In this document: positions 41,921-42,935 of the stretch, in pieces
Layout: each line of letters starts with the position of its first letter
Position numbering within the stretch: the stretch's first letter is position 1
NCBI GenBank assembly: GCA_051648645.1
Contig: JBOFFP010000003.1
Location: 192,001 to 256,000 of the forward strand
Length of the DNA: 64,000 nt
Direction: 5' to 3'
Source of the DNA: Candidatus Rhabdochlamydia sp.
GTDB taxonomy: Bacteria > Chlamydiota > Chlamydiia > Chlamydiales > Rhabdochlamydiaceae
The notes under the pieces: generated by a model
Told to the model about the DNA's origin: nothing
Databases searched by the model: none
Seen by the model: only the letters and a program-made list of their open reading frames with translations
Made by a program: the position numbers and the translations under genes

Positions 41921-42181
41921 AAATTCCCCTGTTGCATCAATTCGTTTAAAATGCTCTTTATAACCGTTTTTTAAAGAGCGGTTAAAAATATTATAAAAAT
42001 TAAAATTTTAAGAGAAAATAAGCAAGTTTATTTTTTAACCATGCAAAATCTATGCTGATTAAAAACTATTCAACCCCTAAAACAAGCCATGGAAAATTTT
42101 GATATTTAGACACTTAAAAATAATTTTTCAATGCAAAAAAACTTTTGTTGACTTATCGTTTTTTTGGCATTAACATATCTT

Positions 42182-42323
42182 TTTTTTAAACTACAGGGAG
42201 CTGATGAACTGTATTTTTGTTACCTAGTCTATTAAAACTTATATCCTCCAAAAAGTAAGATTATAAATAGATAAGTTTACCATTTACAGTTTCATCAACT
42301 CCCTTTTTTTACGTTTAGAAAAA
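42182..42323 (+). ncRNA. Candidate rod-shaped sRNA, copy 1
   Basis: TTGACT-N17-TAACAT promoter (42148-42176); gggagctgatgaactgta pairs with tacagtttcatcaactccc, followed by T7; loop atatcctccaaaaa. Confidence 0.6.
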
Positions 42324-42611
42324 TAGCTAGCATTTACCTTGAATAAGCAGCTTCGAATCACTCAAAAATGCAAATTTTTTCAATCGTCTTTTTATTAAAC
42401 AAGTTTTTCCAAATTCCAAAAGAACAAATATGTAAGTTCGAGTATTGGTATAAAAACTCTCCTTTCAAAAAATACCTGTTTTTTTAACTTTCTAAAAAAA
42501 ATTCATCTATTTTGTTTTTTATATTTATTACTAAAAAAACCTCGCTAATATTTTTAGCTTTAATTTAATAGATTCTCTAAAAGAAGTTAAAAATCTTATA
42601 AAAATAAGAGC

Positions 42612-42656
42612 TTAAACTTTAAGAAAATAAACTGTGTTTATTTTCTTAAAGTTTAA
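42612..42656. repeat. Perfect 21-bp inverted repeat
   Basis: ttaaactttaagaaaataaac-tgt-gtttattttcttaaagtttaa. Confidence 0.85.
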
Positions 42657-42796
42657 TTGCTAAATCAGCTCACTTGAAAAACATTTTACTTCATAAAATA
42701 AGTTTGGAAGTTTTTGATATTTAGAGACTTCAAAATAATTATGAGAAACAAAAAAAACTTTTGTTGACTTATCGTTTTTTTGTTATTAACATATCT

Positions 42797-42935
42797 TTTT
42801 TTTAAAGGTGTGGAGTTGATGCAGCCATGTTCTTGTTATCTAATCTAAAAAAACCATATCCTCCAAAAATAAGGTACGATAGATTAAGTGGTTACTATTG
42901 TGGTTTCATCAACTCCCTTTTTACGTTTAGAAAAA
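42797..42935 (+). ncRNA. Candidate rod-shaped sRNA, copy 2
   Basis: TTGACT-N17-TAACAT (42764-42792); ggagttgatg pairs with catcaactcc; same atatcctccaaaaa loop. Confidence 0.6.

Follow-up and report, generated by a model that had tools for sequence, protein, structure and literature searches.

The closest described counterpart of the elements reported here is CtrR3 of Chlamydia trachomatis, a rod of 110 nt that carries a single C-rich loop and for which the accessible text of the original work describes repression of YtgB and CTL0389 and gives a Chlamydia precedent for C-rich loops acting on ribosome-binding sites (PMC9426522). Its overexpression is described as impairing the conversion of RB to EB (PMC9426522, PMC11796381, PMC2817459, PMC13627705). 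The two elements found in our window, the whole stretch of 64,000 nt of a Candidatus Rhabdochlamydia genome that was analysed, resemble CtrR3, as portrayed in the available parts of these reports, in being single rods of ~110 nt whose apical loop is C-rich and complementary to ribosome-binding sites (PMC9426522, PMC11796381, PMC2817459). The lack of Hfq and the text of the loop (UCCUCC followed by an A run) are likewise similar. They differ from CtrR3 in location, with CtrR3 placed directly 3′ of the tmRNA whereas each window rod is preceded by a promoter of its own and has different neighbours (only a terminator follows the tmRNA of this genome); in the seed, which spans 14–18 nt here compared to 8–13 nt in the imperfect published sites of CtrR3; and in the target, the published targets of CtrR3 being YtgB and CTL0389, not euo.

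Other known systems share single features with the rods. IhtA is also a trans-acting chlamydial sRNA, described as acting on HctA, a developmental DNA-binding protein, by blocking its translation (PMC9426522). Its target is thus other than euo. IhtA is a multi-hairpin RNA and pairs at the start codon. RNAIII and RsaE of Staphylococcus aureus are C-rich-loop sRNAs pairing with Shine-Dalgarno sequences, and 6C of Mycobacterium is a C-rich-loop sRNA of a bacterium without Hfq (cited in PMC9426522). With these three RNAs the rods have in common an unpaired C-rich motif directed at Shine-Dalgarno sequences independently of a chaperone, but the three use several loops on many targets, and the rods have no Rfam match. 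6S RNA (RF00013) is similarly a rod with internal loops; the window elements are unmatched by its model, are much shorter and conserve the apical loop instead of the central bubble.

Euo belongs to a set of eight regulators that all chlamydiae are reported to share (PMC4652624), its conservation in Rhabdochlamydiaceae being treated in PMC9723776. Euo protein of C. trachomatis falls after 16 h while euo mRNA rises, by a mechanism stated in the accessible text to be undefined, maybe lower translation or proteolysis (PMC10653925), and likewise called unclear in PMC11423577. Our literature search (most subscription journals lay outside its scope) returned no paper on an euo-targeting sRNA or on any Rhabdochlamydia sRNA, and nothing on chlamydial 6S. 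The evidence collected here probably defines a new RNA family, restricted to the genus as searched, with euo as its best and conserved predicted target. The class of RNA is known; the family, its long single-gene seed, the redundancy of two member types and the target are undescribed in the searchable literature.

Architecture of the two rods in the window

The sequence-only reading had drawn attention to two elements 616 bp apart in an ORF-free gap. Both elements, here copy 1 and copy 2, are found at that place and distance (Table 1), and the gap (41920-43144) is nearly empty, except that one non-conserved ORF of 50 aa overlaps copy 2. A direct repeat of 56 nt at 96% identity extends over both promoters, whose -35/-10 hexamers (TTGACT/TAACAT) and 17-nt spacer length are the same, in agreement with the claim of identical promoters save for two differing positions inside the spacer. 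Promoters of this type were present upstream of all 17 family loci listed and also upstream of protein-coding genes elsewhere in the genome; a promoter consensus scan of the window performed at chance level (9 sites, 9.9 expected), and a terminator scan of the window included neither rod among its sites.

Each copy folds into one rod (-31.1 kcal/mol for copy 1, -31.2 kcal/mol for copy 2), and equally good folding was reached by 0/200 shuffles of copy 1 and 1/200 of copy 2. The features pointed out earlier, namely ends that pair and are followed by a T run, inner stems that differ in sequence yet keep pairing, and an invariant apical sequence of 14 nt, are all recovered in both folds. From promoter to T run, the predicted RNA comprises about 117-128 nt, shorter than the 130-145 nt anticipated. 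The proposed support from covariation holds in part: while the alignment of eight type A sequences has 95.1% of its cells paired (30-43% in slid controls) and the folding z scores (Table 1) agree with a structured RNA, only 4 of 26 pairs vary at both positions (as good in 6/500 shuffles), and the covariation is modest because three of these four changes are contributed by copy 1 alone. An Rfam search of window 40000-45000, likewise suggested by the sequence-only reading, gave no meaningful match (best E 2.2), nor did Rfam recognize anything except tmRNA at the type A, type B and CtrR3 loci.

Table 1. Coordinates of the rod elements and associated features in the window
Feature	Position	Strand	Basis
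Copy 1 promoter TTGACT-N17-TAACAT, putatively sigma66-type	42148..42176	+	repeat comparison, promoter scan
Copy 1 rod, type A, three stacked helices	42195..42304	+	z -4.96; model R1 102.9 bits, not independent (R1 built from these same type A sequences)
Copy 1 apical seed	42241..42254	+	12/14 bases unpaired, p above 0.8
Copy 1 T run after closing stem, predicted 3′ end	42304..42310	+	sequence
21-bp perfect inverted repeat 5′ of copy 2	42612..42656		part of duplicated unit
Copy 2 promoter, hexamers as copy 1	42764..42792	+	repeat comparison, promoter scan
Copy 2 rod, type A, nearest to genus consensus	42812..42917	+	z -3.87
Copy 2 apical seed	42856..42869	+	unpaired in fold, euo complement
Copy 2 T run, predicted 3′ end	42918..42922	+	sequence
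Type B promoter, same family	46275..46304	+	genome pattern search
Type B rod, CCUCC seed decayed here, intact in 7 relatives	46312..46431	+	alignment, seed matching
Second conserved structured domain 3′ of type B rod	46450..46610	+	leads to small ORF 46615-46914

Within the window, the seed 14-mer occurs without mismatch only in the two apical loops. Contigs from other runs (X2, X3), ~4% divergent, span copy 1 and reach towards copy 2, and the duplication is therefore not an assembly artefact. The minus strand folds equally well; a minus-strand reading was rejected because the promoter and T run are oriented along the plus strand. The inverted repeat between the copies is terminator-like on the minus strand and has a degenerate counterpart near 42013-42035. 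Peptide coding by type A was considered in eight copies: a 15-codon frame is found in three, one of 50 codons in one, and the frame is broken in four. With a predicted promoter and 3′ end of their own and no conserved reading frame, the elements have the appearance of genes for base-pairing sRNAs. The one RNA run among the four available (X1, share 0.18), accessible as assembled contigs that are unsuited to short RNAs, covers the flanking genes and one intergenic stretch, the rods hardly.

Type A and type B members in the genus

Profile search identified the rod with T run (type A) in 7/9 genomes of the genus, and the same element is found in the Ca. Rhabdochlamydia loci L033 and L104. In six relatives it is present as a single copy in fixed synteny, between transketolase and a convergent gene pair that looks secretion-related, the protein match (CT668-family) being only weak; the convergent operon has a hairpin of its own in these relatives. 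A paralogue, type B, exists in 8/9 genomes and is represented here by the window copy of Table 1 and another on contig C4. It has the same promoter and loop as type A, different stems and no T run, and it runs on for ~180 nt past the rod, through a second domain, to small ORFs. The models of A and B match each other's members although the stems differ, which identifies the loop as the part that is kept. An intact seed is carried by at least one rod in 9/9 genomes, which are close kin and form a mostly unresolved tree. The present genome has two type A and two type B copies, both of the latter without an intact seed; in G007 and G004 type A was lost with a rearrangement and type B was kept. Most type B copies contain a GGGAGAGG stretch downstream of the rod; G005 and the metagenomic copy L380 have lost this stretch and retain the seed.

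The second domain contains repeated ACTAG words, a stem around a hairpin of variable length and a small hairpin before the ribosome-binding site; it had no match in Rfam. The ORFs behind type B rods (L005, L009, L020-L024, L380) encode ~65-130 aa, often as tandem pairs, and had no match in an NCBIfam search. They mostly end in cysteine plus three residues (CSLL, CFIL, CCIQ), an ending absent from the window ORF 46615-46914 and resembling, on our assumption, prenylation signals. We regard them as candidate secreted proteins that undergo lipidation by the host. Promoters of the family seen ahead of the rods also stand before several lineage-specific protein genes (G000:C1:110494, C4:209449, C5:15152 and C1 near 126745), which suggests a shared regulon or spread by duplication. 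Elsewhere in the window, at 791-6179, 24967-30671, 43144-45150 and 56245-62516, there are lineage-specific gene pairs repeated in tandem, together with two related clusters that encode hydrophobic and possibly secreted proteins.

Searches beyond the genus returned little. Among 120 other genomes of the taxonomic family, type A model R1 matched none and model R2 gave two weak matches only (E 0.2-0.3); in 148 further genomes of the order, R2 had one match, a rod without the loop in G052. The G052 rod, from another family (L507, about 1501-1626, minus strand), is intergenic, folds at -55.9 kcal/mol over 140 nt and starts like type B, with the C-rich loop absent. A loose pattern scan of genome contigs yielded at least 119 stretches, with 6 family members among the 113 screened; the metagenome scan yielded 5 stretches, one a real type B (L380), and the viral scan 2, neither a family member. 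In shallow searches, anti-euo rods with other stems were absent from the 50 matches inspected of a larger number; from 30 of 32 matches inspected in four sister-genus genomes; and from 30/30 and 30/81 matches inspected in ten more genomes. Counts of the anti-euo rod pattern in five Chlamydia genomes without CtrR3 were at control level. Homologues outside the genus should accordingly be regarded, at the level of sequence searching, as not found rather than absent.

The euo leader as predicted target

An unpaired seed complementary to the initiation region of a distant mRNA, as would be expected of a base-pairing sRNA, is predicted for both window copies. The 14-mer occurs three times in the 1.67 Mb genome, in the two loops and, as antisense, on the euo ribosome-binding site outside the window (G000:C12:27289-27302), compared to a Markov expectation of 0.12-0.16 for the whole genome and below 0.001 for RBS zones. 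Extended by one base, the seed is a 15-nt perfect complement of euo -20 to -6 for copy 1 and of euo -21 to -7 for copy 2; flank shuffles that keep the anti-SD core gave a match of 15 nt or longer 35 and 17 times in 5000, respectively. The identity of the target gene is based on EUO-named members in its 90% cluster and on its match to the one euo gene present in each of five Chlamydia genomes. Among 1493 genes from a crude gene caller, euo comes out first with either loop (-25.8 and -24.8 vs -20.5 and -20.8), and with opening costs included for the 45 best candidates it has -17.4 and -16.1 vs -10.7 and -10.4 kcal/mol. The target scan proposed by the sequence-only reading thus delivers one clear target; the exposed anti-Shine-Dalgarno loop which that reading put forward remains the best interpretation, now as a gene-specific antisense seed of 14-15 nt rather than a generic CCUCC.

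The complementarity extends through the genus. Exact 14-mer sites in the nine genomes number 23, of which 9 are euo ribosome-binding sites and 8 are type A loops, the remaining 6 lying within ORFs. Type A matches euo over 14-15 nt in 8/8 copies, and type B over 18 nt in 6/7 relatives and 16 nt in one; the two type A copies of the window genome pair better with euo than those of relatives (-25 vs -21.5 to -24.3). Two euo paralogues, ~65% identical, are present in 9/9 genus genomes (L203-L211; here G000:C12:24022-24456 and 26833-27282), and one of the two is without a seed-complementary site in the genus; second euo copies occur also in several sister genera. In four relatives (L508, L510, L511, L513), another exact complement of the type A seed is located inside one long ORF, possibly a coding-region site or chance. 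The Waddlia Euo box consensus, as given in the accessible text of PMC4989314, is too AT-rich for useful promoter scoring.

Taken at its most probable, the family is a trans-acting antisense RNA predicted to block translation of Euo. Each copy would be a stand-alone gene transcribed into an RNA of ~120 nt, the stable rod keeping the CCUCC-containing loop single-stranded. First contact would be made between this loop and the leader of the euo mRNA, at its U-rich loop and Shine-Dalgarno sequence; the latter is placed in a small predicted hairpin whose loop complements that of the RNA, an arrangement which would suit loop-loop initiation. The short apical stem would then open, giving a duplex of 15-22 bp over about -27 to -6 of euo that would block ribosome loading and so lower Euo protein in the cell, with possible consequences for developmental timing. 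The mechanism would need neither Hfq, not found in this 93%-complete genome, nor CsrA, whose best match there reaches 13.3 bits at a cut-off of 27. A CsrB/RsmY-type sponge was rejected, the rod having a single C-rich loop and no repeated GGA loops, with CsrA below cut-off. Whole-molecule co-folding of the window copies with the euo leader was no better than with random leaders (n=148; -1.2 vs a control mean of -1.2, and -4.7 vs a mean of -3.6 and a best control of -11.6), in a nested model that cannot represent loop-loop pairing. The rods suggest a testable way of turning down Euo, a central regulator of the chlamydial life cycle: they name a concrete RNA-target pair, for which the seed-less type B copies are natural controls.

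Sister genera in which the searches met no rod also have the euo leader motif. The target therefore predates the RNA, and seed and target offer no genuine case of compensatory change. The RNA adapted to the older euo site or was copied from it, and the match could be a relic of that origin. That the rod is such a relic of an inverted copy of the euo leader, or else a generic anti-Shine-Dalgarno RNA damping many mRNAs through its CCUCC core, we consider unlikely. The older leader motif would fit, and the 3′ arm of type A matches the leader collinearly at a further place, near -60, as expected of an inverted copy, over 9 nt in two genomes (p 0.002-0.003), 8 nt in two, 7 nt here (p 0.07-0.09) and not at all in G008; CtrR3, too, is described as having several targets (PMC9426522). 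However, the seed is invariant while the stems diverge, it decays when freed (the type B copies of this very genome), not one of the nine genomes is without an intact seed, and euo is ~6 kcal/mol ahead of the next candidate. It is quite improbable that the family acts chiefly in cis, as a 5′ leader (type B) controlling the small ORFs, for example by sensing euo mRNA or by pairing with the downstream GA-rich stretch, and that type A represents cut-off offshoots acting as decoys. The continuation of type B, without a T run, into the second conserved domain and the ORF, and the GGGAGAGG stretch 3′ of most rods, are what such a leader would have, but the stretch is missing from two copies that keep the seed, and type A, to which the window elements belong, has a T run of its own and a fixed syntenic place in six relatives.

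Protein binding, either as a 6S-like decoy of RNA polymerase or through mimicry of an rRNA helix, seems very improbable. It would account for the rod shape, for the lack of an Rfam 6S match elsewhere in the 93%-complete genome and for the resemblance of the loop to a stretch of chlamydial 23S rRNA (L463, from G033; the present assembly is without an rRNA operon). The 6S alternative raised by the sequence-only reading nevertheless finds no RF00013 match on the rods, which have ~115 nt against 187 model positions and a conservation peak at the apical loop; in the 23S rRNA a complementary stretch follows the CCUCC, whereas the CCUCC of the rod is free, and the euo match would be left unexplained. 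Hardly any probability attaches to a MITE, a repeat or a bidirectional terminator without RNA function, another alternative the sequence-only reading had named. Two near copies, inverted-repeat ends and, in the relatives, a convergent operon whose end the element faces are in its favour, against which stand just two full copies plus two of type B in the genome, one copy at one syntenic site in six relatives, flanks that by eye lack target-site duplication, a separate hairpin for the convergent operon and a promoter outside the repeat. Antisense control of euo by the rods is the reading we retain.

CtrR3 and the euo leader in Chlamydia

With CtrR3 sequences located by the published probe, the RNA was found after the tmRNA in 4 of 24 scored Chlamydia genomes. 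CtrR3 model R3 matched no A or B rod in G000, G002 and G007, models R1 and R2 did not match the CtrR3 loci L151-L153, and 11 of 12 pairwise alignments between rod and CtrR3 were not significant. Since synteny and model tests failed, the rods are described as working like CtrR3 and are not filed as its members. The invariant loop and internal-loop bases of CtrR3 (L178, L168, L170, L171) pair with the euo leaders (L212-L215) in two helices of 8-9 bp and 5-6 bp, at -23 to -25.5 in the four carriers vs -15 to -21 in four genomes without CtrR3. The two-part site occurs once, at the euo ribosome-binding site, in each of the four carriers and in 0/21 other Chlamydia genomes; the carriers form one clade, so the co-occurrence counts as one event.

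Tentatively, and with the balance of our judgement against it, antisense control of euo by a rod could have arisen at least twice in chlamydiae (the Rhabdochlamydia family, and CtrR3 in the C. trachomatis clade), or be ancient and have co-evolved past recognition. In the accessible text, euo is absent from the 52 published pull-down hits of CtrR3, which were taken at 30 h (PMC9426522), and euo knockdown is described as giving fewer infectious progeny with EB formation unblocked (10.64898/2026.08.22.746413), unlike CtrR3 overexpression. The CtrR3-euo pairing offers a second testable prediction: if true, euo would be an overlooked target of CtrR3, and the pairing would provide the so far undefined mechanism by which Euo protein declines as euo mRNA increases. 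In both type A and CtrR3, the loop resembles a stretch of chlamydial 23S rRNA, which we take to be helix 81, where the CCUCC is paired; this resemblance is probably due to chance.
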